A DNA stretch of 50,726 nt, filler included, from Jimgerdemannia flammicorona (taxonomy: Eukaryota): the NCBI GenBank assembly GCA_003990765.1. It is 2 parts of 2 records of this genome, joined end to end, with 100 filler letters (N's around TTAATTAATTAA, not from the genome) between each part and the next. Parts side by side here need not be neighbours in the genome. Positions count along the whole stretch, not along the records: positions 25,421 to 50,726 come from RBNJ01000851.1; 1 more part is not named here. One strand, given 5' to 3'. The notes below the pieces were generated by a model. That model was not told the origin of the DNA. It saw only the letters and a list, made by a program, of their open reading frames with translations, and did no database searches. Positions 3,126-50,726 of this stretch are shown piece by piece (the stretch's first letter is position 1; every line of letters starts with the position of its first letter). The translations under genes were made by a program, and so were the position numbers.

Positions 3126-3279
3126 ACCAAGATCACCGAACTTGAGCATAAGAAGGAGAAAAACATGAGCAAGTATAGTTATACCATTGGAGACGAATTT
3201 CCACTCAAGGAGGAACTCAATAAAATACTCCACAAATTTGAGGATGTCCTTGCCACAGATAGTGCTCCAAATGAATGGA

Positions 3280-4410: not shown

Positions 4411-4437
4411 TCCGCATACTTATCTCGGTCCCTCAGA

Positions 4438-6320: not shown

Positions 6321-6449
6321 CCGCCAACCCCACCCCACATTGGCCGCAAACTCCGGGCCGAGTCCTCAGATTTTTTTTCCTTTTTATTAATTTGAAAGGT
6401 ATTAAATATTCCACAAGGCCAACCAACTTATCCGCGGATCCACCGAATT

Positions 6450-9130: not shown

Positions 9131-9520
9131 GGATTCAGATGAGGATTCAGATTGAAGGATTCAAATTGGAGGATTCAAATTGAAGGATTCGAATTGGAGG
9201 ATTCGAATTGAGTGATTCGGATTGAGTGATTCAGATTGAGTGATTCGGATTGAGTGATTCAGATTGAGTGATTCGGATTGGAGTGGTTCGGATGGGTGAT
9301 TCGGATGGGTGATTCAGATGGGGTGATTCGGATGGGGTGATTCGGATTGAGTGATTCGGATTGAGTGATTCGGATTGGGGTGGTTCAGATGGGTGATTCG
9401 GATGGGGTGATTCAGATGGGGCGATTCAGATGAAATCCGAGTTGATTTGGATGGCTTCAAATATGAGATTCAAATCAAACCATCATGTGATGAATCGAAT
9501 CCAGATTTGATTCGAATTGA
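9130..9520. repeat. hAT right subterminal repeats (GTGATTCGGATTGA-like)
   Basis: About 20 copies of a 13-15-bp motif. Confidence 0.9.
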
Positions 9521-9544
9521 CTCATTCGGAGCACTAGCCATAGA

Positions 9545-19400: not shown

Positions 19401-19989
19401 TAAAGTTAGTGGTATAGGTGAAGAATAGAGTAGATTTGGTAAGCCCAGGATATATATTGTACAAGATGCTGAAGTAGATGAGAAGGGCTGCAAGGAATGT
19501 CAGAATATTAGGTAGGTCTTTCAAGATTACTAGAGATTTCTGCAGGATGACCTTTGAGTCTGAGCCATTGACTGTTTCAATGAATTGAGCCTTAAGAAGA
19601 GCTTCAGAGAACAAGATATTATACTTAAGAAGATGAGCAAGAGAAATGGCAGAGAAGAAGTTATTGATAACTATAGTCAGTAAGTATTAGTTGATATAAG
19701 CATATTTAAGTAAAAGATTGATACTACAAACCATAGTATGTGGGGTAGTGGTGGGAGAGATATGAAGAATAGGAAGGAACTCACTCTAAGAGTTGCTTGA
19801 TAGACCAAAACTACTCATGAGGATTGAGACAAAGATAGCTATCAGAGAGATAGGCATGGCTACAATAGTAGTAGACAATGAGATAATGGTATAGTTGATA
19901 ATAGCTTGATTGATAGCTGGGTGGAGATACTAGAGAGCCATCTTTCTCAAGTATTATTTGGATTACACAACCTTTGGAAAGCACTTACA

Positions 19990-22900
19990 ACATCATTCTT
20001 AGAGAAAAGAGACTAGCAACATGGTGACCAATAGACAATCTGAGGTATATACTATGCAGAGTGGCCCAAGTACATTCAACTGGCAATATGTAGGGAGAGG
20101 CCCTGGTCTGGGGGGAAATATGAGGGGGCTGCTGATAGGAGGATGCAGAAGGGGAGAAAGCAGTGGTGGAGAACAGAGGTCTAGAAGAGTGAGCTTTGCA
20201 GAGACAGTAAAAGAGAGACAGCAGGCATCTAGGCTGGAGGAATGGCTGAGAAAAGGCAAGGAGATGGGGTAGGTAGCAGTATATAGGGGAGTAGCCCTTG
20301 GTGGTGGAGGCAGTAGAGCTGGGGGTATAGTGACTGGAGTAAATATGATGGCTGATAGTGACAGGACTGTCAATCTGGAAAAAAATCCAGATGTGACTGC
20401 TGATGGCAAGGCTGAGCAGTTGGGGCTTGGAAGGCAGGGAGATTTAGTGGATAGTGTAATGGGCCTAGTGATGGCCCCATTACTCAAGAAGTTGATCTCG
20501 GCATTTGTGGTTACATTGTACTTCTGAGGCCTAGTAGTGACAGTGAAAATAGTACTGGGGCTTATTGCTAAGCAGATGGCTAGAGTAGCATCAGTAAAGT
20601 TTCTAAAGGGATTGGAGGGAGTGGAGGTGGGCTTTGAGAAGGCTGGGTCTTTGGAGGAGGCACTGAAGGCTGGATTGACTATTGGGGAGATATGTATTCT
20701 AATGGCACATTGCCTGAGATGAGATCCCAGGGTGGGACAACTGCTGGTAAAAGGAGTGCCCATAGTGATGGTGGTGGAGATAAGAAGGAGAGTCAAGGAG
20801 GTCATGGCTGAATATGGAGAGATGGTGGATATCAGATTCAGAGTCTGGAAAGGGACCTTGCTCAGAACTGGGGATGTTGATATCAGGATTCAGTTGGCAG
20901 AGAAGGAAGCTACTGGGAAGACAAGAGACTGGCCTTCAGTAATGGTCTGGGGGGTAATCTTGTGCAAGGTGATGAGGGTGAAGAGGAGTAAGAAGGAAGA
21001 GGACTTATTGAAAGTGCTGGAAGAGCTGAGTGGTGTATTGGAGCAGTGGGTGAAGGCTTGAAAGGCCTTTGTGGAGTTGACATATTTGGAGGTAGTGGAT
21101 GGGAAGTGGATTCAAGTAGACAAAGAGCAGTGAGAGAGGGCCCAGGAATGTAAGAGATAGAAAGAGCTGCTGGCTAAACTAGAGAGTAGACTACAGAAGG
21201 ATGCAAGTGGAATTGAGGAAGCAGAGAGTACCAAAGTGAGCATCTGGGCCAGTGAGGGTAGAGGAGTTGGGGGGAAGGAGATGGGAGAGGACAGAGAGGT
21301 AATTGACAATAACCTATATGCAGATAGTATGTTTGAGGTCTGGAAGGAGGACTAGAAGACCTCACCTATACCTACCTCCCTTATCAGGTGAGGCCTGGCT
21401 TCTAGAAGTAGGGTGGCAGAGGATGTGTCTATGCAGGGGGCCCTGAAAGTGCAATTTGGAGTTCCAGAGATAGCGAATAGGGGACAAGTGGTGGCAGTTG
21501 GAGAGGAGGAACTGGTGGATGTCCCAGAGGTATAGGATGAGTCTGTAAGTCCTGGGGCTGATACCATGATACTGGATAGAGGAAGGCCAGTAACTTCTAG
21601 AGGGAAGAAGGTGGGGAACCTACTTTGGATATATAGGATAATGAACAACTTGGCAGCTGAAGAGTTAGGGGAGGTGGACTTGAGAGTAATGAGCGATGAG
21701 CATTGGGCACAGATCCTGCAGAGAGATGGAGTAGTGATGATATTGAAGGCAGAAATCCTTGTAGTATATCTGGAGAAGGAAGGGTAAGAGGTGAATAAGG
21801 AGTGGGAGGTAGAGCTGGCAGGTATTGCTGGTGAGAGAGCCAACTACTACTGGGCCAAGTATCATGAATTGCAGCTCTGGCAGAAGGCCTGCCTAGAGTA
21901 CCAGGAGGAGTTTGAGGAGAAGGCAGATGGGGAGATAAATGAGCTATTGGCTGGAATGGAGGCTAAGAGGGCTGAAGAGGAGGAGTTAACTACAGAATAT
22001 AATCTGGATATAGCACAGAAAGAGATGAACATGGAGCAGTAGAGGATAGACTTGATAACACACCATATTTCATTATGAATAGTACAACTAACATTTTTTC
22101 TTTGAATGTAAATAGATTGCAGGACTCTTCTTGATATAGGAACATTTTTACTTAGCTGAAGGGATTGGAGACCAATCTCTTCCTCTTACAGGATATCAGG
22201 TGTGAGGATGATTTGGATAGACTGAAATGGATGAAGGAATGGGAAGGTGAGGCAGTTTGGAAGAGCAAGGTTAGAATTCTGGTCCAGAGAGACAGAGGGG
22301 AGATATATGATGTAAGGAGCTAGAGAGATAGATTGGTCTAGGGAGAGTGGACATATACAGGTTGAGAGCTGGTTACAGTGGGCTCCTATTACTGTTCTGC
22401 TGTATAGGGTGAGCATGTAGATTGAGTGAAGGGTCTTCAGAAAAGTGGGGTCCTTGCAGAGGCTGGGGTAGATATGCTGGGTGGAGACTTCAATATGGTC
22501 TGGGATATACTGGTAGATAGAACTGATGGAGGATAGAGAGCTGAGGATAGGAGTAGAGGGCTGGTGGTATAGGAGGAAGTGGAAAGACTAAGTGCTCTAA
22601 TAGATGCTGGCAGGGAGTATTGGAAGGATAGGAGGGTATATACACATTGGGCAGAGGGCCTGGGGATGAGGATTGACTGAATTTTGACAGCTAGCTATTG
22701 GGGTTTGGATGTTTGGAAGTTGCTGGAGATGGAGTGGTGTCTATGATCAGATCATTGGGGGCTGTTAGGACAGAGATATTTTGGGGGAAGTGGGGATGGG
22801 CCTGGACATTGGCACCTCAATTCCTCTTTATTAGATGATAGGATCTAGTGAGATAAGTGAGCTGAGGACATTCAACTGAGGGTAGAGGGCTGGAGACAGA

Positions 22901-25006
22901 AAGGTGCCCCAGTTGGTGTCGGTGGATGTGGATGAAAGAGATGGCCAGGGTCTACTGGAGTGAGGCTGGCAAGGAGGCTGGGAAGCAGAGGAGGTGACAG
23001 GTGAGATGGGCTTCTGTAAGACTGGCTAGACTCTTGGAAGATTGGGCAGAGCTAGTGACATTAGAGGGGAGAGAGGATTGGAGATTAATGAGAGCAAAAA
23101 TGGAGGTTGGAGAATTATAACAGGTGTTGCAGGAAGAGGAAGAGGCAAGGGTGCAGAGCTTAGTGATAAGGTTTTGTTGGTAGGGTTTGGAGGAAGGAGA
23201 AAGGCCCTCCAAGTATCTCATGAGAGCTCTTCAGGTGAGAAGGATACAGCAATGGTGAGAGGGGGTACTTGACTCTGATAATATACTAGTGCATGGTATA
23301 TAAGATATTCTTGGATCATTAAAGGAGTTATGGAGTGGATTATTGAGTGAGGAGGAGGGTGGGGCTGATGCTGCTGCTATTGAATAGACATTGGAGAATT
23401 GGCACCCCCTCATAAGTAGATGGGCTGGGTGACTTAGTGTTGCCAGTACAAGAGGAAGAGATCTACCAGGTTCTTGCCATGATAATGCTAGGTATGGTAC
23501 CTAGGGAGGATGGTCTGCCCTGGGACTTCTGGAAGAATATGATAGAAGTCCCAAGGGTACTGGGTGAGATAACAGCATTGTGTAATTTTATACTATAGTT
23601 AGAGAGATGGGTGGGAGAGCAGAATTTGGGACTGGTGATGTTGCTTTACAAGAACAAAGGAAGGAGAGAGGACTGGAAGAACTGGTGGCCAATTATGCCA
23701 CTGGATATAGACAGAAAGTTAGTAACTAAGGTGGTGGTCACAAGGCTACAGAGAGTGTCCCAGCAAGTCTTGGGTGTTGAACAGAGGGGCTTTGTAAGAG
23801 GCCAGATCATTAGAGATGATACAGCCTGGGTACATGGAGTTATTGAAGAGGCATAAGCTTGTAGACTGGATGGACAACTGGTCTTCTTGAATCAGAAGAA
23901 GGCTTATGACCAGATGCAGCAAGTCTGGCTGGCAAAAGTATTGGATAGGACTAGGGTACAGCACCAGTTCCAGTTAGCAATAATCAGCCTACTGGAAGGA
24001 AGTCAGGCTATGCTCATGTGTAATGGGCATAGAGGGGTATCATTTTCCCTGAGTAGGAGTGTGCCCCAGGCAGATCCACTGTCTCCCATTCTGTATACTC
24101 TTTCCCTGGAACCTCTAATGGATAGAATCAGATAGAAGATAGTGGGGCTCTCAGTCTTTGGAATTGGGTAGAAAGTTCTTTGCAGATGACATGGTGGTCA
24201 GCCTGGGATCAATTGCTGATATTGAGAAGCTCAAGAAGACAGTAGAGTGGTATGAGATAAACTCTGGGGCTAAACTCAATTGGCACAAGTGTGAAACAAT
24301 GGTGTTGGGCAATAGTCTGGTGGGAGGGGATGTTATTGGAACAATCGTCCCTACTGAAGAGGTTGTGTAGTACTTGGATATCTATTTGTCAGTATATGGA
24401 TCAGTCCTACCAAGACTTTGGTGGAAGCAGAGGGTTAAAATCTGGGGGGAGGCCCTATAGATTTGGGGAGGTTGCCACTTGTCTCTAGCAGGGTATGTCT
24501 CAATTTTGAATATCTATTGGCTGCTGAAGTTGTGGTATCTGGCTTATCATCTGGACTTCCTAGCCTGAGTGGTGAAGAGACTGATGAAGCTGGCCAAAGG
24601 GTGGATCTGGGCTAGAAGAAGAAGTCAGATCAGTTGGGAGGTCTTATTCTTAGGAGGACTTGGGCTGGTTGACATTCTGAAGAGACTGTACTGCTTGAGA
24701 GCATGGTGGTTAAAGAGAGCAGTGGAGTTGAGAGGGGGTAGCTAAGTTCTCCTATTGCAGAAGATCTGGGAGATAAGGTCCTCATCAAGAGGCTTGACAG
24801 GAGATCTACTATTCTTGGTTAAGCTTCGGAACACTGGACAATTGAGATACAAAGGCTTCTGATGGGGGATAGTAAAGAGGGTGCACTGTATTGGAATTTG
24901 TTGGCAGGGAAATAAAGGGGAGGTGGCTTGGGATCTGGTAATGTAGAGATAGAACTGAGTGTTGCTGGGAGGCATTTCCTTAATTAAGTTCAATATTAGT
25001 GATAGG
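19990..25006 (+). mobile_element. LINE (L1/Tx1-like) non-LTR retrotransposon, decayed, 3' end cut by a hAT end
   Basis: ORF1 remnants ~20060-22040. ORF2 has APE motifs (SLNVN, GGDFN, RID, SDH) and RT motifs (EDGLP, WPIMPLDIDRK, EQRGF, KAYD, VPQADPLSP, FADD). Confidence 0.9.
22074..25006 (+). pseudogene. LINE ORF2 (APE endonuclease + reverse transcriptase)
   Basis: Motifs as above with many stops and frameshifts. Confidence 0.88.
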
Positions 25007-26358: not shown

Positions 26359-27432
26359 ATAGGGTTAGGAGTGAGATCTAATGGAGAGCAGATTTACTTA
26401 AGAGTGGTTTATGGGTTATTAATAGATTTATTTGCTATTCATAATATTGCTATACTAGAAGTAGTTATATGAAGAGATATTATAGGAAAGTGTTCAGAAA
26501 TGTTCTTATATATTTGAGTCTTCAAGTCTAAGATTCTAAGGTCAGGGAGAGGGGGTATTTATACTAGTGAGGGGCTATCTAAACTATACTGGATATAGAT
26601 ATAGTACTTAGTGCTTTACTAAGTCAAAATGCAGTCATATAATATAAGTGTGATCTGACATATGTATCAAGGGATTGTCTAACTACTGAGTCAGTTCACA
26701 GTCATATCATATAAGGCTAATCTAACTATACTATAACTGCTAAGCTATTTATAGATTTAGATGCTATCTGGTTAGTCTTTAATGATATCACTATTAATGA
26801 CATCATCTTTGATAAAGTCTGAGCAGTTTTCTGACTTCTGACATTATTAGTTTTAAAGATATCATTACTTTTGTCTCTTGCAAAATTAAGGCTATTCTTA
26901 GTAGTAGTGGTTGTACAAGGATAATAGGTCTTGGTTCTTTTTTTTTTTAGACTACTGATATATTTGTAAGAACTAGCCATCCTTGTCTAAGGCAAGAGCT
27001 CCTAATATTGCAGCTGGGGGTTCAAACCTCTCAGAAATAATATTTTTTATAATCTGAGATAATTTATAATGGTAATATCTATCACATAGATAAGCTTGAG
27101 ATTAGTTTTGACAATGTTGGCTTTTTTGAGTTCAGATGAAGTATCTGTTATTTTCCAATAGAGGTGACACAGATAGAGCAAATAGAGTTGTTCAAATATA
27201 TTTTACTTCTGCTAAGTAATGAGGTCTTTGCTTTTGCTAAGTAATGAGATCTTTATATAGTTACAGTATATCTTAGTCTTAAGTTGATAAGTGTAGTTCA
27301 TAAATCTTTGATGGATGAGATAGAGTTCTTCTTGTCTTGGTTTGAGTTTAGTACTTCAGTTTTCTTTTGTAATAATACAGTATACCAAAACTAGTTATAG
27401 AGATTCAGAGTCAGTCTTATGGTTGTAATACT
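26359..27432 (-). repeat. Inverted partial copy of the 1.5-kb (short-type) LTR
   Basis: Reverse complement matches ~27588-28635. Confidence 0.88.
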
Positions 27433-28926
27433 TGTAAGTGCACAACCTCCAAGCCACCAAAATCACATGGCATCCTCAGAACTAATTTGGAAACCACATG
27501 TGAGACTACAAAACAAGAGATCATCTGATTACACAAAATATGCCAGCAAGCACGAGAACCCACTGCCAAGATATAAGAATACTAGAAGAAGTACTACAAC
27601 CATAAGACTGACTCTGAACCACTATAACTAGTTTAGTGTACTGTACTATTACAAAAGGAAACTGAAAGTACTAAACTCAAATTGAGATAAGAAGAACCCT
27701 ATCTCATCTACCAAAAGATTCACAAACTGCACTTATCAACTCAAGACCAAGATATACTGTAACTATACAAGACCTCATTACTTAGTAGAAGCAAAATACA
27801 TTTGAATAACTCTGTTTGCTCTATCTGTATCACCTCTATTGGAGAGTGACAGATACTTCATCTGAACTCAAGAAAGCCGACATCATCAAAACCAATCTCA
27901 AGCTATCTATGTGACAGATATTACTACTAGAAATTGCCTCAAATTATAGAAAATATCATTTCCAAGAGGTTCAAACCCCCAGCCACAATATTGGGAGCCC
28001 TCACTCTAGACGAGAATGGTCAGTCCTCACAAATGCACCAGCAGACCAAAAAAAAAAGAGAACCAAGACCTATTATCCTTATACAACTACTGCCACTAAG
28101 GATAGCCTTAATCTTACAAGAGATAGAAGTGATGACACCTTGAAACTAATGATGTCAGAAGTCAGAAAACTGCTCAGACTTTGCCAGTGATAATGTCATC
28201 AATAGTGATGTCATCAAAGACTACCCAGATGGTGTCTAAACCTATAAATAGCTTAGCAGTCATAGTATAGTTAGATTAGCCTTGTATGACATGACTGTGA
28301 ACTGACTCAGCAGTCAGATGATCTCTTGATATATCAGATCACCTTTATATTATATGACTGCATTCTGACTCAGCAAGGCACTTAGTACTACATCCATATC
28401 TAGCATAGTCCAGATAGCCCCTCACTAGTATAAATACCCCCTCCCCTAGACCTTAGAATTCCAGACTTGAAAGACTTAAATAATCTGAATACAACTCCTG
28501 AGTACTTCTCCATAATATTCCTTTATACAACTACTCCTAGTATAGCAATATTATGAATAGCGAATAAACCTATTTAATAATCCACAAACCACTCTTAAGT
28601 AAATCTGCTCCCCATTAGGTCCCACTCCTAACCCCATTACGAAATTTCCTAATTGGGTATTGTCTGCAGCAATACGCCAATTCAACTAAGCTAGTCTTAG
28701 TTTCTTGAACTTTCTGAAATATGGGAAATCCTGAACATCCAGAACTAGTTCGAAAAAGGACTTTGGTTGAGACATCAACCTGAACTTGAAATCAATAAGC
28801 ATAGAGGATATACTCTATATGAAATTGATCTTGACCATAAGAAAACAGTCTTCCAGAACATCCAGAACTTCCAGAAAACCCTTCCAGAACTATGTAATGG
28901 TTACCTTAAAAAGTAACTCTCTTACA
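27433..28926 (+). repeat. 5' LTR (1494 bp, short type)
   Basis: TGTAAG/CTTACA inverted ends, TATAAAT at ~28429, AATAAA at ~28563. Confidence 0.92.
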
Positions 28927-28929
28927 ACT

Positions 28930-28941
28930 TGGTAGCAGTGG
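28930..28941 (+). promoter_or_regulatory. Primer-binding site, probably initiator tRNA-Met
   Basis: TGGTAGCAGTGG 3 bp after the LTR end; TGGTAGC is typical of iMet PBS. Confidence 0.75.
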
Positions 28942-28965
28942 TTTACAATCCAAATCCACTTCAAG

Positions 28966-30940
28966 ATGCTTCCTCACTCCACTACAAATCCTTCTGAGAA
29001 TTTCTATAAGTTGGTATAAAGCCCAATCTCTGAACTGGAATTTATCCTGAACTATCTGGCAATCTAAAGAGAATTGAACCTGACATACAAGGACAATTTG
29101 ACCTCCACATCTGCAATAAGTGGGATAAACTTCATTCAAAGAAAAAAGTACTCTGATTAAACCAACAAATAGGTGAAACTCTATTCACTGAACTCCTTGC
29201 ACTACACCCAGCAAGTCAAGATGAAGAAGGTCTTATTGAAGCCTTCTTTACTCTTCTCAATAAGAGTTTTATCAGCTCCACAAATCCGAGTGACCTAGAA
29301 CAACCAGCAGCAGTCTTTCTAGCCTTAGTCCCTCATGAAGCCCAAGCCTCTGTAGCCAAGTGGCTCAACTCTACTGACTTTCACCATACCAGGACCAAGA
29401 CCGCATTATACTACCGATTCCAGAACAGCAAGGCCCACCATATTCTTAAAGAAGAAGTAAGAGAAACCCTTCATCAACTACCTGACTCTGAACCTGAAGC
29501 AGGCCCTGCTACAGCTCTACCTGAACCTGAAACCAACACTGAACCTGAACTTGACTTTGAATTAAGTCCATCTGAAATTAGATATACAACTGATTCTGTC
29601 TACTTTGATGCTAAGCAAACCCAATTACACAGGGACCAAACCAAAGAGGAGGAGGAGTATCTCAGTAAATTCAATCCCAGATATACTACTAAAGGAGAAG
29701 TACCTCCATCAGGACAGAATACATCTATACAGCAACAAACAGTTATCTATCAAGCCCTCACTCCAGACCTACAACTACTACTCTAGTAACTTACACAGAC
29801 CCAAAGAACTCCATCATACTCTGCATCAGTATCTCAAATAATACCAGTAACACCACTACCAGTAGTCCAACTGCCTCCAGTAAACAATATGGTGAACCAA
29901 CAGATTCTAGACCTCACAGCCCAGATAGCCATAATGGCAGCAACCATTACTACCTTAGCTGAACAGACCCAACCTACCAAAAATCTGAGCCTACCTACCT
30001 TCAATAGTACTACACAAGAAGTCCAAAGCTTCATTAGTGTAGTTGATACCAACTTCGAAGCCAATCAATGGACCAATGAGCAAGTTGCTGACTGTATTCT
30101 GACAAACAATCAAGACCACACTCTGGAACAACTCTTTGCTACCACTACAGCCTATGTCTATCGAGTTGTTACATTCTTTCAAGGACCTACCGAAGAATGG
30201 TGGTGAACCCTTCCTGAAAAACTCCTTACATGGGATACTCGACCTGCAGTAGTTACTCAGAATGTAACAAACAATGCCCCAGGATATGGAGTCCATCCTA
30301 TAGCCTCTGGACTCAAACAACTTATGATTGCTCAATACCGCAGCGAAACCATGATTGCTGAATCTTGAGTAAAACTCTGCAACCTCAAATTTGATGTATA
30401 TGGCAAAGAAGAATTCAAAACCTTCTGTACAAAACTCGAGTTACTCTTGAACACTGTTGGCCTAGAATAAATTGCCAATGATGAAGCACGAAATGGTACA
30501 AGAGCAGACTATTTATTCGATGCACTGCCTGAATGGCTTACTAGAAAAATCCAAGAACAAGACTGCCTAGTTGGTTGTAATCACCAACAATGGTGCCTAG
30601 CAAGAATCAAGACTATGGTCAAGTGAATCCTAACAGCTGGACCAATTCTACCCCGAAGACAATTCAATAACAAGGAAAAGATGAACCAAGAAAGAAGAGC
30701 CCAAGTATAAGGCATCCTGAGCTCCCTCCACATCCACCTCCTGGATACCCAGAAATCATGAATCCACCCAACTGAGTACCTTCAAGAAACTTACTGAAGG
30801 CGAAAGAAATGAACTTCAAAGAAGCAGAGCATGTTTCTATTGCCGAAAGACAGGACACATGGCCAGTGCCTGCCCTAACCAAAAACCCCAAACAGCAACA
30901 TGAACAACTGTTACCACTCTGCACCACCTTAATAACCTGA
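28966..30940 (+). pseudogene. gag: Gag with long N-terminal extension and zinc knuckle
   Basis: LSLPTFNST..VQSFI, FFQGPTEEWW, CFYCRKTGHMASAC at 30832-30873. Confidence 0.82.
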
Positions 30941-30954
30941 CTACCAGAACACTG

Positions 30955-31360
30955 GACTTTGTCAAGTTAAGACAAACTACTAAGACCCCAACCAAAGGAA
31001 GTCAAAAAGCAGCTGGATATGACCTGTATGCAGCTGAAGAAGCTACAGTTTCCAACCAAGAAGTCAAATAAGTCTACACAGGAATCAGTATCCAAATCTC
31101 TGAAGGATATGTTGGAAGAATATGCTGTTGCAGCAGCCTAGCATTGAAGAACTCTCAGTAGAAGGAGGAGTCATTGACGAAGATTATACAGGCAAAATTA
31201 TTATCCTCATCTGAAACCACAGTTGGACACTCTTTAAGATCCCTATTGGATTCTGTATTGCCCAGATACTATTTGAAAAAATTGAGTCAACTCTGACAGT
31301 CAAGGAAGTCCCTGAACTACTGCCCACCATCTGAGGATCCAAAGAATTTAGCTCATCAAA
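30955..31360 (+). pseudogene. dUTPase upstream of protease
   Basis: AAGYDLYAAE, TGISIQI, SSLA, GGVIDEDYTG, IAQILF, *GSKEFSSS. Confidence 0.9.
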
Positions 31361-31569
31361 CAAGGCCCCAGCCCAACCTACTACAAATAAAGAAGAACAA
31401 TTCTACAAGAAGATCGAAGATGGATATGTACCAAGTGGCCAATGCCCTCATGGCATTGGAATGTACTCTTCTCAAATAATTGATGATTACTTCTCTTGTG
31501 TCAATGAACTAGCTCAAAGAAGAACTAACAGAAAGAAAGCTTCTACAACTGAGATCACCACCATTGGAT

Positions 31570-31950
31570 CAGACAAACTGCTTACACTTAAAGCTTTTGT
31601 CAACTGAGCACCTGTCAAGATTATGATAAACAGTGGTGCCTCAGGCAACTTCATTAGTAAAGAGACAGCCAACAGACTTAAGGTCTTCACCTCTCCAGTA
31701 CAACAAACTCAAGCAGTTGTCACAGCTGATAGAACCTCACATATTATTAGCAAGGAAGTCTGCAATCTACCCTTTCAAATTAGAGACTACCGAGTATATG
31801 TTACCCTCTAGATCATACCACTCCCTAACAACAAAATCATCCTTGGAACCCCATGGTTAAAACAAGAGAACCCCATGATTGATTGGGTAAACCATTCTCT
31901 CACCATCAAGAAAGGACGCCACAACTTCAAATTGCAAGGTAAAAAGGACC
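31570..31950 (+). pseudogene. Aspartic protease
   Basis: IMINSGASGNFIS (D>N), IILGTPWLKQENPMIDW. Confidence 0.88.
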
Positions 31951-32164
31951 CACTCAATTCTAGTGACTCTGGACCAAAGATCACTCATATCAATAAGCTA
32001 CAACTCAAGAAATTGGCCAAGAAATGCCCTCTCTTTGCCATCTCCATCCACTCATCCAAAGAAGAACTCAAAAACTCTGAAGAAGACTTTTCCAAAGTTG
32101 ACAGCCATGTCAGACCACTACTCCAGAAAGCCTGAGACACATTTCTGAACTAAACCACAGAACC

Positions 32165-32235
32165 ATCTGTATCTGTCATTATTAATGACCAAGAAGAATA
32201 CAAAGTTGAACAAATCCTCAACAAACACAGCCATA
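32165..32235 (+). pseudogene. Chromodomain N-terminal remnant
   Basis: VIINDQEEYKVEQILNKH resembles the chromovirus EYEVExILD motif, just before the PPT (AAGAAGAGGAGAG, 32303-32315). Confidence 0.6.
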
Positions 32236-32647
32236 AGAACCATCCAAATGGTACAACAACACCAGAACAAATTAGAAGACCCCAATGAGGACATCGAAAG
32301 CTAAGAAGAGGAGAGTTGTAAGTACACAACCTCCAAGTCACCAAAATCACATGATATCCTCAGAACTAATTTGGAAACCACATGTGAGACTACAAAACAA
32401 GAGATCATCTGGTTATATGAAATATGTCAGCAAGCACGAGAACCCACCACCAAGATATAAGAATACTAGAAGAAGTACTACAACTATAAGACTGACTCTG
32501 AACTGCTATAACTAGTTTAGTGTACTATACTATTACAAAAGGAAACTGAAAGTACCAAACTCAAATTGAGACAAGAAGAACTCTATCTCATCTATCAAAA
32601 GGTTCACAAACTGCACTTATCAACTCAAGACCAAGATATACTGTGAC

Positions 32648-34710
32648 TGTAAGTACACAACCTCCAAGCCACCGAAATTACATGTCACCCTCTGAACAAG
32701 CCACTGAAATCACATGCAACCTCTGAACAAATCTGGAAATCACCTGCTCGATCATAAAGCTGAGTCAAACCGAAGTCACAGTGCATAAAGCTGAGTCAAT
32801 ACGAAGTCACAGAACATAAGATTTACATAAACAGAATCTTACCAATCAGGACCAAATGTATATATAGCGAGCATCAAGATGCGTCGAATCAGAGAACCAA
32901 AATAAACAACAACTATAACTTTCAAACAAACAAATATGACCACTGAGATCTATAACCATATCTGTGCTGACATTTAGAATACCATTGTCAACTAAGCCAC
33001 ACCCCCTCTGCCCCTCATGAATATCCATAGCCTAGCACTCCTCTACTTCGTGAAAGCCTGATGGAATGCTCTGAACATACTTAGCGAGGCTCACTGAATC
33101 GGACAAATCTCAAGCTACTACCAGATCAGCTGCCTCCTAGAAGATATGGTCGAACACTACCACAATACAGACATCACCCAGATGTCTTAACACCAGAAGC
33201 TCATTGCTCGCAAACATCAAGAACTCTTCTATGAGTATAGCACCATTATTCCCTGCCTTCAAGTTACTACAGCTGAAATGGTTACTACCCTGTCCTATAG
33301 CCAAATTGATGACATGATACAAGAACTCAACCACAAGTATCTCGAGTATATCGAAACCACAGATAGAACCTTTCCACACTCCAATGATCATATTCTGCAA
33401 ATGCCTCAAGTTGGATATGCCATGAAGGACATCTATGATATAATCAACTTCAATGAAGATGAAGTAGAAGACAATGACCCCTCTGATGCTGACATGACCT
33501 CTAGCCAAGGATCTCTGCCAACCTTGATCACACCGCCAATCTTGCTAATGAACTTACAATAATTCATAATAGCATACGAGACTTATTGGGACAATGATCA
33601 CTGACATGAATACTAACCTATATTCACCTCTGATTACTTCAACTACAATAAAGAGACTGGAGAACACAATCTATACCTCCAGACAACTCTCGAGATTGAA
33701 TCAACTACTCTACCACTTGAGTATAAGTGACATGAACTATAGCCACCAACTTACTACAACTCCGCAACTCATAGTGCTGTAACCTACAGAAGGTATGCAG
33801 ACAGCGAATCTGATGAAAGTGAAGATGATGCACCCCTCCTTCGCCCACCAACACCTTATCCAGCATATGAGACAGACAATGCTATTCTGTGGGATGGTGA
33901 TGAAGTTCCAATGTATTATTACCTCAGCGAACAAGGAGAAGTAATCCACGAACCACTCTTCCTAAATGACTACTTTATCAGAGATGATATAATTGATGGT
34001 GATGTCATCGAAAACTACCCAGACAGTGCCTAAATCTATAAATAGTCTAGCAGTCATAGTATAGTTAGATTAGCCTTGTACAATATGACTGTGAACTGAC
34101 TCAGCAGTCAGACAATCTCTTGACATGTCAGATCACACTTGTACTATATAACTGCATTTTGACTCAGCAAGGTACTTAGTGCTACATCCATATTCAGTAT
34201 AGTCCAGATAACCCCTCACTAATATAAATACCCCCTCTCTCAGACCTCAGAATCTCAGACTCGAATACACAAGAACATTCCTGAACACTTCCCCACAATA
34301 TCTCTTCACATAACTACTCCTAGTATAGCAATATCATAAATAGTGAATAAACTTATTTAATAACCCACAAACCACTCTTAAGTAAAATCAGCTCCCTGTT
34401 AGATTCCACTCCTAACCCCATTACAAAAATTCCTAATTGGGTATTGTCTGCAGCGATATGCCAATTCAACTAAGCTGGTCTTAGTTTTTTGAACTTCCTG
34501 AAATACGGAAAATCCAAACATCCAGAACTAGTCTGAAAAAGGACTTTGGTTGAGATGTCAACCCGATCTTGAAATCAATAAGCATAGAGGACATACTCCA
34601 TATGAAATTGATCTTGACTATAAGAAAAATGATCTTCCAGAATATCTAGAACTTCCAGAAAACTCTTCCAGAACTACGTAATGGCTACCCTAAAAAGTAA
34701 CCTTCTTATA
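32648..34710 (+). mobile_element. 2063-bp long-type solo LTR nested in the 3' LTR
   Basis: TGTAAG...CTTATA ends, 5-bp TSD GTGAC/GCGAC; same length as 47255-49317. Confidence 0.92.
32936..34033 (+). pseudogene. LTR-encoded 365-codon ORF, more decayed copy
   Basis: ATG at 32936, TAA at 34031-34033; collinear with 47543-48640. Confidence 0.8.
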
Positions 34711-36720
34711 GCGACTATACAAGACCTCATTATTTAGCAGAAGCAAAATGTATTTGAATAACTCTGTTTGCTCTATCTGTGTCATCTCTATTGGAGAGTG
34801 ACAGATGCTTCATCTGAACTCAAGAAAGCCAATATTGTTGAAACCAATCTCAAGCCATCTACGTGACAGATATTACTACTAGAAATTGTCTTGGATTACA
34901 GAAAATATCATTTCTAAGAGGTTCAAACTCCTAGCTATGACATTGGGAGCCCTTGCTCTAGATAAAAATGACCAGTTCTTGCAAATGTACCAGCAGACCA
35001 AAAAAAAAAGAGAACCAAGACCTGTTATTCTTGTGCAACCACCACCACTAAGAATATCCTTAATCTTGTAAGAGATAGAAGTGATGATACCTTGAAACTG
35101 ATAATATTAGAAGTTAGAAAACTACTCAGACTTTGCCAGTAATGATGTCATCAATAGTGATGTCATCAAAGACTACCCAGATAGTGTCTAAACCTATAAA
35201 TAGCTTAGCAGTCATAGTATAGTTAGATTAGCCTTGTATGACATGACTGTAAACTGACTCAGTAGTCAGACAATCTCTTGACATATCAGATCACCCTTGT
35301 ACTATGTGACTGCATTCTGACTCAGCAAGGCACTTAGTGCTACATCCATATCTAGCATAGTCCAGATAGCCTCTCACTAGTATAAATACCCCCTCCCCCA
35401 GACCTCAGAATCCCAGACTTGAACACTTGAACAATCCAAACACAACTCCTGAGTACTTTCCCAGAATATCCCTTTATACAACCACTCCTAGTATAGCAAA
35501 TTATAAATAGCGAATAAACCTATTTAATAACCCATAAACCACTCTTAAGTAAATCCACTTCCCATTAGGTCCCACTCCTAACCCCATCACGAAATTTCCT
35601 AATTGGGTATTGTCTGCAGTAATATGCTGATTCAACTAAGCTGGTCTTAGTTTCTTAAACTTCCTGAAATACAGAAAATCCAGAATATCCAGAACTAGTC
35701 CGAAAAAGGACTTTGGTTGAGATGTCAACCTGAACTTGAAATCAATAAGCGTAGAGGATGTACTCCATACAAAATTGATCTTAACCATAAGAAAATGGTC
35801 TTTCAGAACATCCAGAACTTCCAGAAAACCCTCTCAGAATTACATAATAGTTACTCTAAAAAGCAACCCTCTTACAATAGTAATAATAAAATAACTACCT
35901 TAGAGAAAATATAATCTATAGAATACTAATATCTATAATTAATTAAATTATTATTAGTTAATTAAAAGAAAATTAAAGTATAATAAACAATACTTAAGTA
36001 TTAAGATAGTTACTTTCTTATTCTAAAAATATTTAATTAGTATTTAAATAGTTGATATTATTAGTAAATTTTAAATCTAAAAATATATTTTTTATTTTAA
36101 TCTATTAAAAATAAAAATAAAATTTTGTAAAACAAGTAAAAAATACATAAAAATTATTAGAATTTTTTTTATAAAGTTATTCTTATTTTACGAGTTAAAT
36201 TTAAAAAGCCAAATTCGGTGACATTATTTTATATATTTATCTATATTATAAACTAAGAGATATTTGAGTATTAATCCTTGAGTATAGTATATCCCTCGTC
36301 TGAATTCTCAACATATCTCTTACCCGGATTCCCTTCCTGTCTCTCTGACTTCCGTTATCCGAATTCCGAAATCCGATCCCTGCTCCAGGATCAACATGCT
36401 TATCGCCCGAATTCAGCTCAACTGGGTAATCTCCCACCCGAATTCTGTATATCTTATCTGAAATCCAACGTTTTTTTCAAAATAAAAATTACCTGCTTTA
36501 GCTACGTTCTCATTTACAGACTAAGGGATATATTATGTATTAATAAGATTATATTTTATAATATAAATATTAAAATTAATTTGATTTCATATTATATTTT
36601 ATCCAAAAAAAAAAAAAAAAAAATTGCAGATCTAGCAAAATCAAGCCACTTACTGTGACGTCATATACACTTTTGTCTGGTTTCGTTGGAGAATTGTCCC
36701 TTATTAGAACTCTCACCACA

Positions 36721-39700: not shown

Positions 39701-42700
39701 CCAACCCCTATAGTAATTTTTACGATGGAACTATTCCGATGTTTACAGGAGAACACCAAACGCGGATTCTTGCTGCTGGAGAGCTCAATGTTATTGTACA
39801 GCGGTGGCGAACATAATGACATTACTGCCATTAATCCGGACGCGATTGTTTGGTCTCATATTCAGGTGAGATGGTGCAGTATCAGTAGTGTGTGAGGCTG
39901 AGTTTTTTAAGTTGAGCTACGATAACGTACGTGAATGCTCTCATAATACTCGGACTCGATCAGAAAAGCTAAATCGTTACCAATCCTTGACGATGGTAGT
40001 ACCCTGCCATTTATATTACCGAGCACTGGCCTATTCGGGTATGCATAACATTGTTATCAAAGCATGTATTTTTCGAAAACAAGTAGAGCATATAGGAAGC
40101 ACCAATCTGCTCTCATTCGTAGCTATTTTGACTAACCATCTATATATCTATACCTCCAAACATTTCCGCATGCGATCCCCATACTACTAGTACGCAACAA
40201 TCAACTCAGACGGCCGATATGTCGCCATTGCGGGCCGTCGTGGCTTAGCGCACTACAATATGTCCTCAGGTCGATGGAAGCTATTCGGTAACCAGCAACA
40301 TGAGCGCGAGTTCGTTGTTCGGGGCGGGATGGCGTGGTACAAGCATGTGTTGATTGCGGCATGCCAAGATGTGAGCACAAAGAGCCAGGAGGTAAGCGAA
40401 TTGAATTGGAGGACGGTTATCCGTGTGAATATACATATACCCTATTTGCTTTAACACATACACACAATTTTCTAGATCCGTCTATACTCGCGCGAGACAA
40501 ACCTTGACAACATGTACATGCTTTATTCCACGTCGTTGCACAACAGTCAGTCCACGACTCTCCACCTTGCTATCTCGGGATCCTATCTGACTGTGTATTG
40601 CTCTGATAACGTCATATATGTCTATCTCATCGAACGGCCGACATTGGATACTTATAAGCTGGAGCTTTTGCGAGAGATTAGTCTTGTGGGAATTGTGAAT
40701 CAAACCGGGCGAGTTAGAGGAATGTCGATGTTAAACGCCACTGGCATTGCTGGTACGTCACAAATCAAGTTGCCATGTCATCCAAACTATTATGGAAGGA
40801 TACATCCTAATAATGGCACATTCGTCCACCCCTTCGGATCAGGACGCCTAAGTACTCTCGACGAGTTGCTTGTTGCGAACATTGTGCTTTTAGTGGACGG
40901 GAAGCTGGTCTTACTCCGCTCACATGTGGTACGTAAGATAATGGTCGTTTTCGTACTTTCGTTTTTCTAAGCTCGCTTGAACTTCACCTTGCCCGCCGAT
41001 TCGTTTTTAAACGTCATTTTTCACACGGAATCACGTAGAGTGACGATTATAATCCCGAAATGCCGGACACACATTTCGACTTGTACATTCTCGCAGACAT
41101 GGTGGAGTGTTATTGGATTGGCAATAAGGTGGTAGGCAATCTGGAGAGCTCGATATGGGCTGTCGATGGTCAGGGAATCAAGGTTTGTAATTTTTGTCAT
41201 TAACAAGACTCATTTTATGTGATGCGGGTTTCTCGATTTTATGTTCTACACCGGAACGCTCTGTAGGTCTTAGTCATATTTTACATTGTTCATCTTTATT
41301 TGCACTTTCGTCTCCCCTGCAGATATTCACAAATCTCTTCGATGCCGACGCATTCAATGTCGACTCGACATTCATCATTGAAGAAGATTCCGCTATCGAG
41401 CCACTATCATCGTCAGATATGGATCGACTTAGGTCGGAAACGTCGTCGCTCATGTCGCTGCCGACTTCTCCGCCTCCACGATGGAAAGTTCTTGATCTGT
41501 CGATGGCAAGCGAATATGCATTGCATGTTCGGTTGGACTTTTATCCGTTGTGTAAGTTGGTTCTTGTCAGTTAACTTTTCATGCAAACGTCAGCTATTAA
41601 ATCTACTTTGCAACGCCACTCTATGTTATGCGTTACATGTTTTAGCGATAATGCTTGACAAAGGGATCATTATGGGTGTGGAGCAAAGCATTTCCATACG
41701 TACCTCACTGGACTTCGCGATATTCAAAATCCATACGAAGGCAAGCAATCTTGAATCGCCATGTACTTTACACATAGAACGGTATGGCATACATGCTAAA
41801 ACATGGTCAAAATTTATAGACACACTTGTTCCTGCACCATCTACTGACATATTTGCTGAGTCGAGGGTATGGCTTATTCTATTATCTCGCATTAACCTCG
41901 GTATCAATCTCGTTGAATGGCTTCGTTTTCAACGCTAACGATGCAATCCTATTCCGAATGTGTCATACATCCCCTGACCCGCTCTCATTATCAGCCTGGA
42001 TCAAGAGGCCGTCACGTTTGGAAGAGCGTATGAAAAGTTCGTGTACTTCGGCCACGCGTTGGAGATCCTGTTGCATAGAGTACTGGAGGACGAAGCGGAC
42101 AGGGCCCTTGGAACTTCGGAAGGTTGGTAATGATTTCTCACAAGATGTGGCTGCAATGCTATACCGTTGGACATGTAGATTTTATTACCGTGACGCAAAC
42201 CATGCCGTATTCTTTAGGTGCTATTTTACCCTCTGTCGTCAAATTCCTGGATCATTTCTCCCATGCTCTGGACGTCATTGTAGGATGCGCGCGAAAAACA
42301 GAAGTGGCTCTGTGGGAATACCTGTTCTCGATTGTTGGAAATCCCAAAGATTTGTTCGAGGTGGATCAATCCCCCTTATTCACAATATTATATTGATCAC
42401 TTCTTTGACGGGATCCTGACAATTGTGTTTATGCTGCGTAGATGTGCATGGCAGAAGACCGCTTAAAGACAGCAACATCGTACTTGATCATTCTGCATAC
42501 ATTGCAGCCGTTGGCCGTCGGCGGAAAGGTCAGCAGAGAGAGCCAGCCAATTTCCTTCGCCAAACGATTTCTTGAGTTTCTTTGGTCTCACATCGCAATT
42601 GTTTTGTTTTAGGATACCGTGCGGCTACTGCAGAAAGCCCTGGATGCTGAGAATTTTGAGGTAACCTTGCACACAACTCGGCTTCATGTTATCAAACGGA

Positions 42701-46858: not shown

Positions 46859-47254
46859 CTCCTGCTCAACGAGATATGTAATCCAAAAAGAAATGCAAAC
46901 TAGAGTAAAAAAGCAATGCAATGCATGAAAAAACTAGAACTGCATATAACCCAAATTACAACTATTCGCGGGTTGAAAAGTGTCCCGAAATGTCCGAAAT
47001 ACCCACAAAAATGCAACATATGTAATCCATATAATCCACTTATAGATGAGGGATGTAACCAATATAGATGTGAATGTAGTATGGTAAGGAAGGCTTTTTA
47101 CAGCCTGAAAAGTGTCCCATGATCAACTGAATGCTGGCATACCACTTGTAAGACCTATTCCTTTAATGTATTGCTCAAACTTTAGCTTTGGAAGGGCTTT
47201 CATAAGTAAATCAGTGATCATATACTCTATGGAGATATATTCTAAGTATATAGT

Positions 47255-49317
47255 TGTAAGCGCACAACCTCCAAGCTGCTGGAATTACACGTCACCCTCT
47301 GAACAAGCCACAGAAAACACACGTGACCTCTGAACAAATCTGGAAATCACCTGCTTGATCATGAAGCTGAGTTAAACCAAAGTCACAGTACACAAAGCTG
47401 AGTCAATACGAAGTCATGGAACACAAGATTTACATAAACAGAATCTTACCAATCAGGACTAAATGCATATATACCGAGCACCGAGATGTATTAAATCAGA
47501 GAACCAAAACAAACAACAACCACAACTTCCAAACACACAAACATAACCACTGAGATCTACAACTGTATCCGTGCTGACATTTGGAATGCCATTGTCAAAC
47601 AAGCTACACCCCCTCTGCCCCTCATGAATATCCATAGCCTAGCACCCCTCTACTTCATGGAAGCCTGATGGAATGCTCTGAACATGCTTAGTGAGGCCCA
47701 CCGAATCGGACAAATCTCAAGCTACTACCAGATCGGCTGCCTCCTGGAAGATATAGTTGAACACTACCACGATACAGACATTACCCAGATGTCTCAACAC
47801 CAGAAGCTCATCACCCACAAACATCAAGAACTCTTCTACAAGTATAGTACCATTATTCCCCGCCTCTGAGTTACTACCAGCGAAATGGTTGCTACCCTGT
47901 CCTATGGCCAAATCGATGACATGATACAAGAACTCAACCAGAAGTACCTCGAGTACGTCGAAACCACAGACAGAACCTTCCCACACCCCAATGATCATAT
48001 CCTACAAATGCCCCAAGTTGGATACACCATGAAAGACATCTATGATATAATCCACTTCGATGAAGATGAAGCAGAAGACAATGATCCCTCTGACGCTGAC
48101 ATGACCTCTAGCCAAGGATCTCTGCCAACTCTGATCACTCCACCAACCTTATCGATGAACTTACAACAGTTTATAACTGCATACAAGACTTATTGGGACA
48201 ATGACCACTGGCACAAATACCAACCTGCATTCACCCCCGATTACTTCAACTACAATGAAGAGACCAGAGAACACAACCTATACCTTCAGACAACCCTCGA
48301 GATCGAACCAACCACTCCACCACCTGAGTATGAGCGACATGAACCACAGCCACCAGCTTACTATAACTCTGCGACTCATAGTGCTATAACCTACAGAAGG
48401 TATGCAGACAGTGAATTCGATGAAAGTGAAAATGATGCACCCCTCCTTTGCCCACCAACACCTTATCCAGCATATGAGACTGATGATGCCATCTTGTGGG
48501 ATGGAGACAAAGTTCCAATGTATTATTACCTTAGTGAACAAGGAGAAGTAACCCATGAACCATTATTCCTAGATGACTACTTCATCAGAGATGATGCAAT
48601 CGATGGTGATGTCATCGAAGACTACCCAGACAGTGCCTAAACCTATAAATAGCCTAGCAGTCATAGTATAGTTAGATTAGCATTGTATGATGTAACTGTG
48701 AACTGACTCAGCAGTCAGACGATCTCTTGATATGTCAGATCACACTTGTACTACGTGACTGCATTCTGACTCAGCAAGGCACTTAGTGCTACATCCATAT
48801 CTAGCATAGTCCAGATAGCTCCTCACTAGTATAAATACCCCCTCTCCCAGATCTCAGAATCTCAGACTCGAACACATAAGAACATTTCTGAATACTTCCC
48901 CACAATATCTCTTCATACAAATACTCCTAGTATAGTAATATCATGAATAGCAAATAAACCTACTCTATAACCCATAACCCACTCTTAAGTAAATCCACTC
49001 CCTGTTAGGTCCCACTCCTAACCCTGTCACGAAATTTCCTAATTGGGTATTGTCTGCAGTGGTACACCAATTCAACTAAGCTGGTCTTAGTTTCTTGAAC
49101 TTCCTGAAATACGGAAAATCCTAAACATCTAGAACTAGTCTGAAAAAGGACTTTGGTTGAGATATCAACCCAACCTTGAAATCAATAAGCATAGAGGACA
49201 TACTCCATATGAAATTGATCTTGACCATAAGAAAACAGTCTTCCAGAACATCTAAAATATCCAAAAAAACCTTTCCAGAACTATGTAATGGTCACCCTAA
49301 AAAGTAACCCTCTTACA
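47255..49317 (+). mobile_element. 2063-bp long-type solo LTR
   Basis: TGTAAG...CTTACA with perfect 5-bp TSD ATAGT (47250-47254 / 49318-49322). Confidence 0.95.
47543..48640 (+). pseudogene. LTR-encoded 365-codon ORF of unknown function (helical N-domain, acidic Pro/Tyr-rich tail)
   Basis: One frame with two internal TGAs and ATG>ATA at the start (ATG is retained in the 32936 copy); lies upstream of the LTR TATA box (~48830). Confidence 0.82.
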
Positions 49318-50149
49318 ATAGTGCTATTTTCTACATATTTCTATACAAAATAATGCTATATATTAATATGGTTCATTCTACTATAATGTACTGGATTCTT
49401 AGCAAGTACAATTATAGACTGGTTATTCTGGTATAGTATAGTACTTTATTTTTGAGTAAATCTGAGTACTTTTAATAGCTTATAAAGCTAAATGACTTTC
49501 TTTATCATACTTGATAATACTTGGTACTCTGCCTGTATTGATGATATTGCTATGGATGATTGCTTGTGTATTTGTCATAAAATAACTCTTTTGTTATTGC
49601 TTCTATTGATATAGAAAAGATATCTAGTTATAGATTGGTAGTTGTCTAAATTACCTGCCTAATTGGTATTACATATATCAGATGGCTGAATGTTATTTTT
49701 CTTACTATTAATCCTACTTAATCAAATATCACTACTATCTAATATAAGTATATAGTATACTGATCTTTTTAAGTATTTAAAAATTCTCTTAATAATACTC
49801 AAATATGAATTATTATAATAGAAGAAATACTGTACCATCTTATTCATAGTGTATAATATATCAGATCTCATTCCTAATATAAGATATATAAGAGATCCAA
49901 CTGCTTACTAATAGGGAATATTTTTATTATTATCTTTGGTACTGTTTTTAGTAAATATATTGTCATCATTTTGAATATAGTGTTTGACTTCTTTAACTTT
50001 ACAAAAGTATCTATAAAAGTGCCAACAAGCTTATATTCACTCATATTGAAATATTTGAGAATTTTTTAAGCATATATTACTTGTAAGAGATATATGATAT
50101 GTATGTTTCTATCATATGTAATTATAAGAGAATTACTTATAAAAATACT

Positions 50150-50726
50150 GTTATATAGTTCTAGAAGAGTTTTCTGGAAGTTCTGAATATTCTGGAAGAC
50201 TGTTTTCTTAAGGTCAAGATGGAGTACATCCTCTATGCTTATTGATTTCAAGATTGGTTTGACATCTCAACTAAAGTCATTTCTTTAGACTTGTTCTAAA
50301 TGTTCAGAATTTTTCATATTTCAGGAAGTTTAAGAAACTAAGGCCAGCTTAGTTGAATTGGAATATTGCTGCAGATAATACCCAATCAGGAAATTTCAGG
50401 ATCTAGTTAGGAGTGGGATCTAATATAGTACAGATTTACTTAAGAGTGATTTGTGGGTTATTAAATAGATTTATTTGCTATTTATGATATTACTATACTA
50501 GAAGTAGGGTATGAAGAAATATTGTGTAAAGAAGTGTTTACCTGTATTCTTATCTGTTAGAGTCTATATTCCTGTCTGTTTGAGTCTATATTCCTATCAG
50601 TTTGAGTCAGAGTTCTGAGATCTAGAGATCATTGTCTTCTGCTTTATCATTATTAAACTAAATTATATTATAGATATTCTTCATAGTATATCCAACTTGG
50701 GGCATTCATAGAATGTGGTCATCAGG
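50150..50726 (-). repeat. Inverted, internally deleted long-type LTR fragment
   Basis: Reverse complement matches the LTR 3' part; the last ~60 bp match the MPQVGY region of the LTR ORF. Confidence 0.8.

Follow-up and report, generated by a model that had tools for sequence, protein, structure and literature searches.

Can a gene reside inside the long terminal repeat (LTR) of a retrotransposon and be kept there by selection? The question is raised by a 2063-bp unit in the genome of Jimgerdemannia flammicorona (assembly GCA_003990765.1). This unit, unit B, is located at 47255..49317 on the plus strand of a stretch of 50,726 nt, here called the window, in which parts of two records are joined by 100 filler letters and positions 25,421 to 50,726 come from RBNJ01000851.1. 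An earlier note, made from the sequence alone, had proposed that LTRs in this window encode a 365-aa accessory protein, duplicated with every LTR and retained in solo LTRs. The analysis described below makes it rather probable that unit B and a second copy, unit A, are solo LTRs of a Ty3/gypsy-type (chromovirus-like, dUTPase-bearing) family, and that one subfamily carries a putative selection-maintained gene in the unique 3′ region (U3) of the LTR. The open reading frame (ORF) that would represent this gene is 251 codons long, not 365.

Units A and B as solo LTRs

Unit B starts with TGTAAG and ends with CTTACA, as read directly, and it is flanked by a perfect 5-bp target-site duplication, ATAGT, at 47250..47254 and 49318-49322. 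Unit A has the identical length of 2063 bp and is found at 32648..34710 (+), inserted in the 3′ LTR of an element that carries a sister form of the LTR; the ORF-bearing form is referred to as variant 1 and the sister form as variant 2. The length of both units and the perfect duplication around unit B agree with what the earlier note had reported. The termini of unit A, TGTAAG...CTTATA, differ by one transition from the CTTACA of unit B, and its flanks, GTGAC (32643-32647) and GCGAC (34711-34715), differ from each other by one transition. A paralogous empty site for unit A is present in the 5′ LTR of the variant-2 element, namely GTAAC at 27759-27763, the counterpart of GTGAC, unit A and GCGAC in the 3′ LTR. 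Both units have the TG...CA termini with a short inverted repeat and the 4-6 bp target-site duplication of LTRs, with the empty site identified for unit A.

The last 732 bp of the unit recur at four further places when the unit is compared with the window by the Basic Local Alignment Search Tool (BLAST). Two of these are the direct repeats 27433-28926 and 32317-35876, the second of which is split by unit A. The first is the 5′ LTR of the variant-2 element (27433..28926, +), which is 1494 bp long and has no ORF, and the second is its 3′ LTR (32317..35876, +), divided into 32317-32647 and 34716-35876. The element lies between ATACT on the left and ATAGT on the right, and its interior spans 3.4 kb (28927..32316, +). 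This interior opens with the primer-binding site TGGTAGCAGTGG (28930-28941), which begins 3 nt past the 5′ LTR and is presumably of the initiator methionine transfer RNA type (tRNA-iMet), and closes with the polypurine tract AAGAAGAGGAGAG (32303-32315), which ends 1 nt before the 3′ LTR. In terms of the domain order of Ty3/gypsy chromoviruses, the interior shows a protease (RVP_2; 31608-31811; 22.8 bits against a cut-off of 20.3), a dUTPase fragment (30904-31071; E 3.4e-4, 20.8 bits, slightly below the cut-off of 22 bits) and two motifs read by eye only, namely the CCHC knuckle of gag (30721-30903) and the chromodomain-like EEYKVEQILNKH (32154-32288), a 44-aa piece for which no match was found in Pfam. 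Reverse transcriptase (RT), RNase H and integrase are missing from this interior, which is the sole interior of the family in the window. The presence of a protease and a dUTPase fragment together with the lack of RT and integrase suggests an internally deleted Gypsy-type element.

On this sequence evidence, units A and B are solo LTRs: the LTR pair around the primer-binding site, the polypurine tract, the dUTPase fragment and the protease has ends and a 3′ part of 732 bp in common with them, and they have TG..CA ends, 5-bp target duplications and, for unit A, a paralogous empty site. Each of the three ORF-bearing copies in the window is on its own, as would also be expected if the unit were a self-standing short mobile element that shares sequence with LTRs. 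This alternative is very improbable, however, because terminal direct repeats, looked for inside the unit, are absent and the unit carries neither a primer-binding site nor a polypurine tract of its own, while its ends and 3′ 732 bp match true paired LTRs and its 5-bp duplications are as expected of integrase. A miniature whole element is ruled out by the same lack of internal terminal repeats. In addition, a polypurine run is joined to the LTR start in one contig piece (run X9), which continues into the sequence of unit B from 47304 and gives a weak hint in the same direction.

Beyond the window, the unit matched 4634 contig pieces from four runs, and the family occurs in a run from a soil metagenome and in those of two organisms. 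Together with the dUTPase-bearing chromodomain Gypsy elements known from basidiomycetes and Tuber (PMC2864245), this suggests a fungal host. Searches of metagenome contigs of the Joint Genome Institute (JGI) gave 276 matches to the protein pattern, none of which was confirmed, and 0 matches to a 27-nt LTR motif; viral contigs gave 87 pattern matches, none confirmed, and likewise 0 matches to the LTR motif.

The third variant-1 copy in the window (50122..50726, -) is degenerate and cut by the window end. It keeps ORF codons ~149-181 and is without unit positions ~836-1609. A partial inverted variant-2 LTR copy (26359..27433, -) abuts the 5′ LTR of the variant-2 element head-to-head. The 156 bp missing from it were not found beyond the other end of the element, which indicates a rearrangement and not a simple nested insertion. 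The pentamer ATAGT flanks both unit B and the right side of the variant-2 element (35877-35881; left ATACT), the flanks being otherwise unrelated; this could reflect a target-site preference or coincidence. The 5′ part of the variant-1 U3 holds short tandem duplications at 47299-47353 and 47364-47425, one with a unit of ~22-31 nt containing CACGTSACC..TCTGAACAA and the other with a 31-nt unit containing GCTGAGTYAA. Some matching contig pieces omit 31-79 nt in this region, indicating that these repeats, like enhancer repeats, are variable in copy number.

An open reading frame in the putative U3

The frame originally described, 1098 nt at 47543-48640, is closed in both copies. In unit B, codon 1 is ATA and TGA is found at codons 42 and 109, and unit A has an ATG start and 10 internal stops. 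Other features of the earlier description held. The two units are 88% identical by BLAST and align without indels across the whole 1098-nt frame, the first indel being at alignment column 1747. The lesions had been described as mostly complementary transitions: 11 of the 12 distinct lesions are indeed private to one copy, and transitions, with a concentration at CpG and CpA/TpG, make up 187 of the 205 differences within the first 1730 nt, but the TGA at codon 42 (47666-47668) is common to both units. It is the sole stop remaining once copy-specific C>T/G>A changes are discounted.

A shorter frame is open in unit B. The stop-free stretch 47870-48640 gives 251 codons from an ATG at 47885, in the context gcgaaATGg, to a TAA at 48638-48640 (ORF with stop, 47885..48640, +). 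In the unit, the longest run free of stops spans 256 codons, whereas 1000 shuffles gave a mean of 101 and a maximum of 212, and the other five frames of the open stretch contain 6-29 stops. The 114 codons upstream (47543..47884, +), with the ATA start and the TGAs at 47666-47668 and 47867-47869 in unit B, form an N-terminal extension that is unsupported as part of a gene. In unit A, the counterpart of the 251-codon ORF (33278..34033, +) is a pseudogene with five stops, and five more lie upstream; this copy of the gene is dead.

The 251-codon ORF is in sense orientation and ends 4 nt before a first TATA box, TATAAATAG (48644..48652, +), as the placement of the frame upstream of the TATA box had implied. 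This box is conserved in five LTR copies in the window, with motif matches at 28236, 34030, 35188, 48637 and, on the minus strand, 26760. Downstream of it follow two TGACTCA motifs (48704-48710 and 48767-48773, +), which are putative enhancer sites and are taken here to be bZIP (AP-1/Gcn4-type) sites. They lie between the first TATA box and a second, TATAAATA (48830..48837, +), which would mark the core promoter and the region of the border between U3 and the repeated region (R). An AATAAA signal of the polyadenylation type (48953..48958, +) would mark the end of R. These signals are conserved and are part of the LTR core common to every variant, and the transcript ends are predicted from motifs. 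With U3 assigned by motif, the unit B frame is a sense ORF in U3; the U3 accessory genes of retroviruses are likewise sense ORFs in U3 or overlapping it.

Signs of purifying selection

A search of 5.8 billion protein clusters returned a sole homologue, P0001, of 247 aa. The two proteins share 64% identity and 82% similarity over 250 residues, with two gaps that are both in frame. P0001 is fully open; its start is the Met matching 47885, and its end is at most one codon away from the same stop. A two-sequence profile search of 1.84 billion representatives gave P0001 again and nothing else, and no longer protein relative was found. The 251 codons of unit B were drifted to the amino-acid identity of P0001 in neutral simulations, with 2000 runs at each of three transition shares. 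The frame stayed open in 28, 20 and 9 of 2000 runs, respectively, and no simulation matched the observed similarity (maximum 0.805 vs 0.824).

The base composition of the 251 codons depends on codon position (p=5e-12). The flanking LTR (p=0.93 and 0.94) and the U3 of variant 2 (p=0.46) showed no such periodicity. The differences between units A and B were compared with a null model that preserves the dinucleotide class of each C/G transition. Within the 251 codons, 27 changes on the A side were silent vs 20.2 expected (P=0.026), and 17 on the B side vs 10.3 expected (P=0.006). This silent excess lies between two LTR-borne copies and indicates that part of the A/B divergence arose under constraint inside LTRs. 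A comparison of gaps among contig pieces, of which 32 of 4641 were listed, gives weak support: among the pieces listed, gaps were present in none of the 12 that lie mainly within the 251 codons (16-41 mismatches each) vs 6 of 20 elsewhere, and the small-indel places (12 listed of 16) all fall, for those listed, at 48862-48893. Taken together, these data support the view that the 251-codon sequence evolved under purifying selection.

The open frame could in principle be a chance product of an A/C-rich, G-poor repeat, with no gene at all. There are stops in the 365-codon frame of both copies, and neither fold nor family can be assigned to the product. Nevertheless, this explanation is strongly disfavoured, because the open run exceeds all of the shuffles, the other frames of the same stretch are closed many times over, the homologue is still open at 64% identity with conservative replacements, and the composition is codon-periodic.

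A different question is whether the full 365-codon gene (47543-48640) is real, with the shared TGA at codon 42 being a parallel CpG-type hit or read through. Codon-periodic composition is also seen upstream, although weaker (codons 43-114, p=0.0055; codons 1-41, p=0.057 in B and 0.008 in A), and the frame is indel-free between the two units. Also, an ATG is present at 47543 in unit A and in the loose-end consensus of run X1, and a TATA-like ATATATAC (47467-47474), conserved in unit A, lies 70 nt upstream of it. The longer gene is nonetheless unlikely: codon 42 is TGA in both copies, the first 114 codons show no silent excess (8 vs 7.9 and 5 vs 4.7 expected), the sole homologue begins at the Met matching 47885, codons 43-108 found no homologue when searched alone, and, among the contig pieces listed, two that overlap this part carry gaps. 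Constraint is shown by the last 251 codons only, and the first 114 are unsupported as part of the gene. What remains of the proposed accessory gene is a sense coding sequence in U3 that appears to have been under purifying selection, shorter by those 114 codons than the 365-aa protein first suggested.

Origin of the reading frame

Variants 1 and 2 share their first ~100 nt and their last 732 nt, and their middles are unrelated: ~1230 nt in variant 1 (unit positions ~100-1331) vs ~680 nt in variant 2. The two become homologous again at the nucleotide level at unit position 1332, which is 55 nt ahead of the stop codon. An ORF fossil (28180..28239, +) is retained in the 5′ LTR of the variant-2 element: the last ~19 codons FASDNVINSDVIKDYPDGV and the stop, which are still in frame, with stops further upstream. 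A variant-2 ORF ending at the same stop was considered and rejected, the frame being full of stops. The last ~19 codons and the stop thus belong to LTR sequence common to all variants, and this tail is also conserved in P0001. The simplest reading of these sequences is that the ORF-bearing U3 is ancestral and that variant 2 lost the gene by replacement of the U3 middle. The reverse history, in which a foreign segment was fused in frame to LTR sequence, is possible.

The U3 swap is also relevant to the idea that the ORF is a passenger, that is, a cellular or foreign coding fragment that was recombined into U3 and is useless to the element. The selection signal would then stem from its past as a host gene, or P0001 would be that host gene. 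The unrelated U3 middles imply at least one swap, and the protein has no retroelement domain, both of which are compatible with a passenger. The idea is improbable, however, since the silent excess between two LTR-borne copies means that constraint acted within LTRs, the last ~19 codons and stop are all-variant LTR sequence conserved in P0001, and no longer or cellular relative was found. In addition, the composition at third positions fits the element and not a host gene: the fraction of third-position G is 0.12 in the ORF and 0.08-0.11 in the gag-like frames of the element vs 0.23-0.26 in the exons of the RIC1-like host gene of the window.

Position in the element and spread

The gene would thus be located in U3, within the LTR boundaries. 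In an intact element, it would be the 3′-most gene of the genomic RNA, past the polypurine tract, and reverse transcription would copy it into both LTRs. Recombination between the LTRs would then leave it whole in the single remaining LTR. The earlier note had proposed that the gene spreads through solo-LTR formation, which does not agree with this scheme, because in this recombination the element is lost and a single immobile LTR stays behind. The gene would spread by retrotransposition, and solo-LTR formation would only preserve copies.

Candidate expression signals are present upstream and at the start of the ORF. Besides the TATA-like ATATATAC mentioned above, a pyrimidine run followed by CAG at 47878-47880 forms a candidate splice acceptor, 4 nt before the ATG in good context. 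In run X18, which may represent RNA, contig depth was greater over 48911-49117 than over the ORF, a difference that does not allow the parts of a gene to be ranked. A more far-reaching proposal is that each LTR of the subfamily, solo LTRs included, is a self-contained unit with its own TATA-like element or splice acceptor and the LTR polyadenylation signal, making an acidic trans-acting protein that boosts the family promoter or blunts host silencing. This proposal is quite doubtful. If it were true, the family would represent a dispersed multi-copy gene family kept by element-level selection, and a retrovirus-like 'complex' gene layout would be present in a fungal-type retrotransposon.

The predicted protein

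The predicted product of the 251-codon ORF has a mass of 29.4 kDa, an isoelectric point (pI) of 4.05 and a grand average of hydropathy (GRAVY) of -0.86. It contains 52 Asp and Glu residues vs 11 Lys and Arg, as well as 23 Tyr, 24 Pro and 1 Cys, and the composition of P0001 is nearly equal. Blocks conserved between the two proteins include WHKYQPAFTPDYFNYNE, HNLYLQTT and PPTPYPAY. The PPxY motifs of unit B (PPEY and PPAY) were considered as a lead and were dropped, as they are not conserved in P0001.

No Pfam family was found for the product at E<=10, 0 matches were obtained among chains of solved structures at E<=10, and the ESM Atlas gave no usable match for either the unit B product or P0001. 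The Atlas model of P0001 has a predicted local distance difference test score (pLDDT) of 0.39 and a best template modeling (TM) score of 0.30. There is no similarity of the ORF to the gag-like frames of the element or to other sequence of the window. Acidic-aromatic stretches, such as DDYFIRDDAIDGDVIEDYPD, resemble acidic activation segments and may point to a regulatory or adaptor role. From its sequence, the product may, tentatively, be an accessory factor that serves the element as a regulatory or adaptor protein.

Weighing the evidence

Several observations weigh against a selection-maintained gene in the U3 of this subfamily. Variant 1 was not found in the window as a pair around an interior, all three copies being solo or cut. 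Paired direct repeats around an interior with a primer-binding site and a polypurine tract were found there for the ORF-less sister variant only. The borders of U3, R and the unique 5′ region (U5) are placed by motifs. Furthermore, the divergence between units A and B is flat, at 11-12.5% in the ORF and the non-coding LTR alike, which indicates that most of it is decay after insertion and makes the excess of silent changes modest. Just one homologue is available, on a 998-bp contig, and it could be a cellular gene and not an LTR copy.

The state of the copies and the nature of the product have to be taken into account as well. Under its own mutation load, unit B would have no stop in the 251 codons with a probability of 0.31 in neutral trials, so its open frame may be due to chance and unit B need not be a living copy. 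Accordingly, the persistence of gene-bearing solo LTRs holds for unit B, which keeps its 251 codons open as about 0.3 of neutral trials do, but not for unit A, and the copies in the window are old relics. The searches gave no family, solved structure or Atlas relative for the product. The structure prediction that had been suggested was run with AlphaFold on a two-row alignment and was uninformative, with a mean pLDDT of 31.9, too poor for a fold search.

Comparison with known LTR-borne genes

A few complex retroviruses are characterised by accessory genes in U3. The superantigen gene sag of mouse mammary tumor virus (MMTV) consists of a sense ORF of a few hundred codons that is located wholly in U3, upstream of the LTR promoter, and is present in both proviral LTRs. 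The unit B ORF is likewise sense and wholly within U3, as defined by motif. Sag is a membrane glycoprotein of a vertebrate betaretrovirus, whereas the product described here is acidic and hydrophilic, has no Pfam family and belongs to a Ty3/gypsy-type backbone. The likeness to nef of the human and simian immunodeficiency viruses (HIV/SIV) and to bel2/bet of foamy viruses is looser. These are 3′-most accessory genes that run into the 3′ LTR and are expressed from subgenomic RNAs, and the ORF in U3 would share the 3′-most position in the genomic RNA. However, nef and bel2/bet start in the interior and only overlap U3, while the entire conserved ORF of unit B is inside the LTR and is held whole by a solo LTR. 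No sequence similarity to Sag, Nef or Bel2/Bet was found, the Pfam and solved-structure searches being empty at E<=10. The ORF is, as judged from sequence similarity and the different kind of backbone, not a member of these families.

Additional ORFs of plant LTR retrotransposons have been described as lineage-restricted and faster-evolving than gag-pol, yet constrained (PMC7264820; Retrosat2/RIRE ORF0, PMC3485330). For ORF0 of Retrosat2/RIRE, Ka/Ks values (ratios of nonsynonymous to synonymous substitution rates) are given, and its position is upstream of gag-pol (PMC3485330). The plant ORFs resemble the ORF of unit B in being lineage-restricted, constrained and without assigned function, but they are sited in the interior, between the 5′ LTR and gag or between pol and the 3′ LTR, whereas the unit B ORF is within the LTR itself and persists in solo LTRs. 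In the text of the review PMC7264820, a term search found no wording on a location in LTRs or on solo LTRs. Chromodomain Gypsy elements that bear a dUTPase, with a variable position of this domain, are known from Postia placenta, Phanerochaete chrysosporium and Tuber melanosporum, according to the sections of PMC2864245 consulted. They share the Gypsy-type backbone with a dUTPase domain, and the window holds two such elements. In the same sections, a figure legend is the one place that names an 'additional ORF of unknown function', and no ORF is placed inside an LTR.

In the open-access literature, the term 'LTR ORF' refers almost entirely to MMTV, and a phrase search of open-access text gave no case of a selected gene located in the LTR of an LTR retrotransposon. 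If the gene is indeed maintained by selection in a Ty3/gypsy-type element, LTR retrotransposons, too, can evolve LTR-borne genes, and an orphan protein with a single known relative would join the factors of retroelements. In that case, solo LTRs, which are usually read as promoters or debris, could be gene copies that are masked by annotation pipelines.

Other elements in the window

Mobile elements form a nest in the window. By eye, the minus strand beside unit B, at 49400-50100, resembles the end of a copia-type pol (..NPVHYSRMNHINI..). This was left unconfirmed as the insertion site of unit B: 0 of 11 short open fragments from the unit B flanks, four of them in 49400-50100, matched a retroelement family in Pfam.

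The second dUTPase-bearing Gypsy-type element, at 1123-11496 (+), is unrelated to the first and interrupted between 3000 and 9600. Its parts on the plus strand are a CCHC knuckle (1123-1554), a protease (1735-2337), a dUTPase placed after the protease (2457-3002; E 8e-14), an RT (9651-10424) and an integrase (10858-11496). Its LTRs gave no match in the BLAST comparison of the unit with the window. Within the gap of this element is the C-terminal dimerisation domain of a hAT transposase (6453-7246, -; E 2.8e-12), and beside this fragment, at 5978-6338, are four repeats of ~100 bp, each with a GGAGGG..CCCTCC palindrome.

The only clear cellular gene in the window is the RIC1-like host gene, with exons at 40476-42416 (+) that match the second beta-propeller domain (E 2e-20) and the C-terminal solenoid (E 7e-20) and are separated by short introns. 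The region 20000-24000 has a very strong GC skew, +0.46 to +0.48. Long minus-strand open frames without a Pfam family are present at 19988-22587 and an RT fragment at 23857-24132, and the stretch may be another retroelement. Tandem arrays are located at 9125-9458 (14-nt period, at least 15 copies), 527-742 (33 nt, five copies) and 13-192 (15/24 nt).

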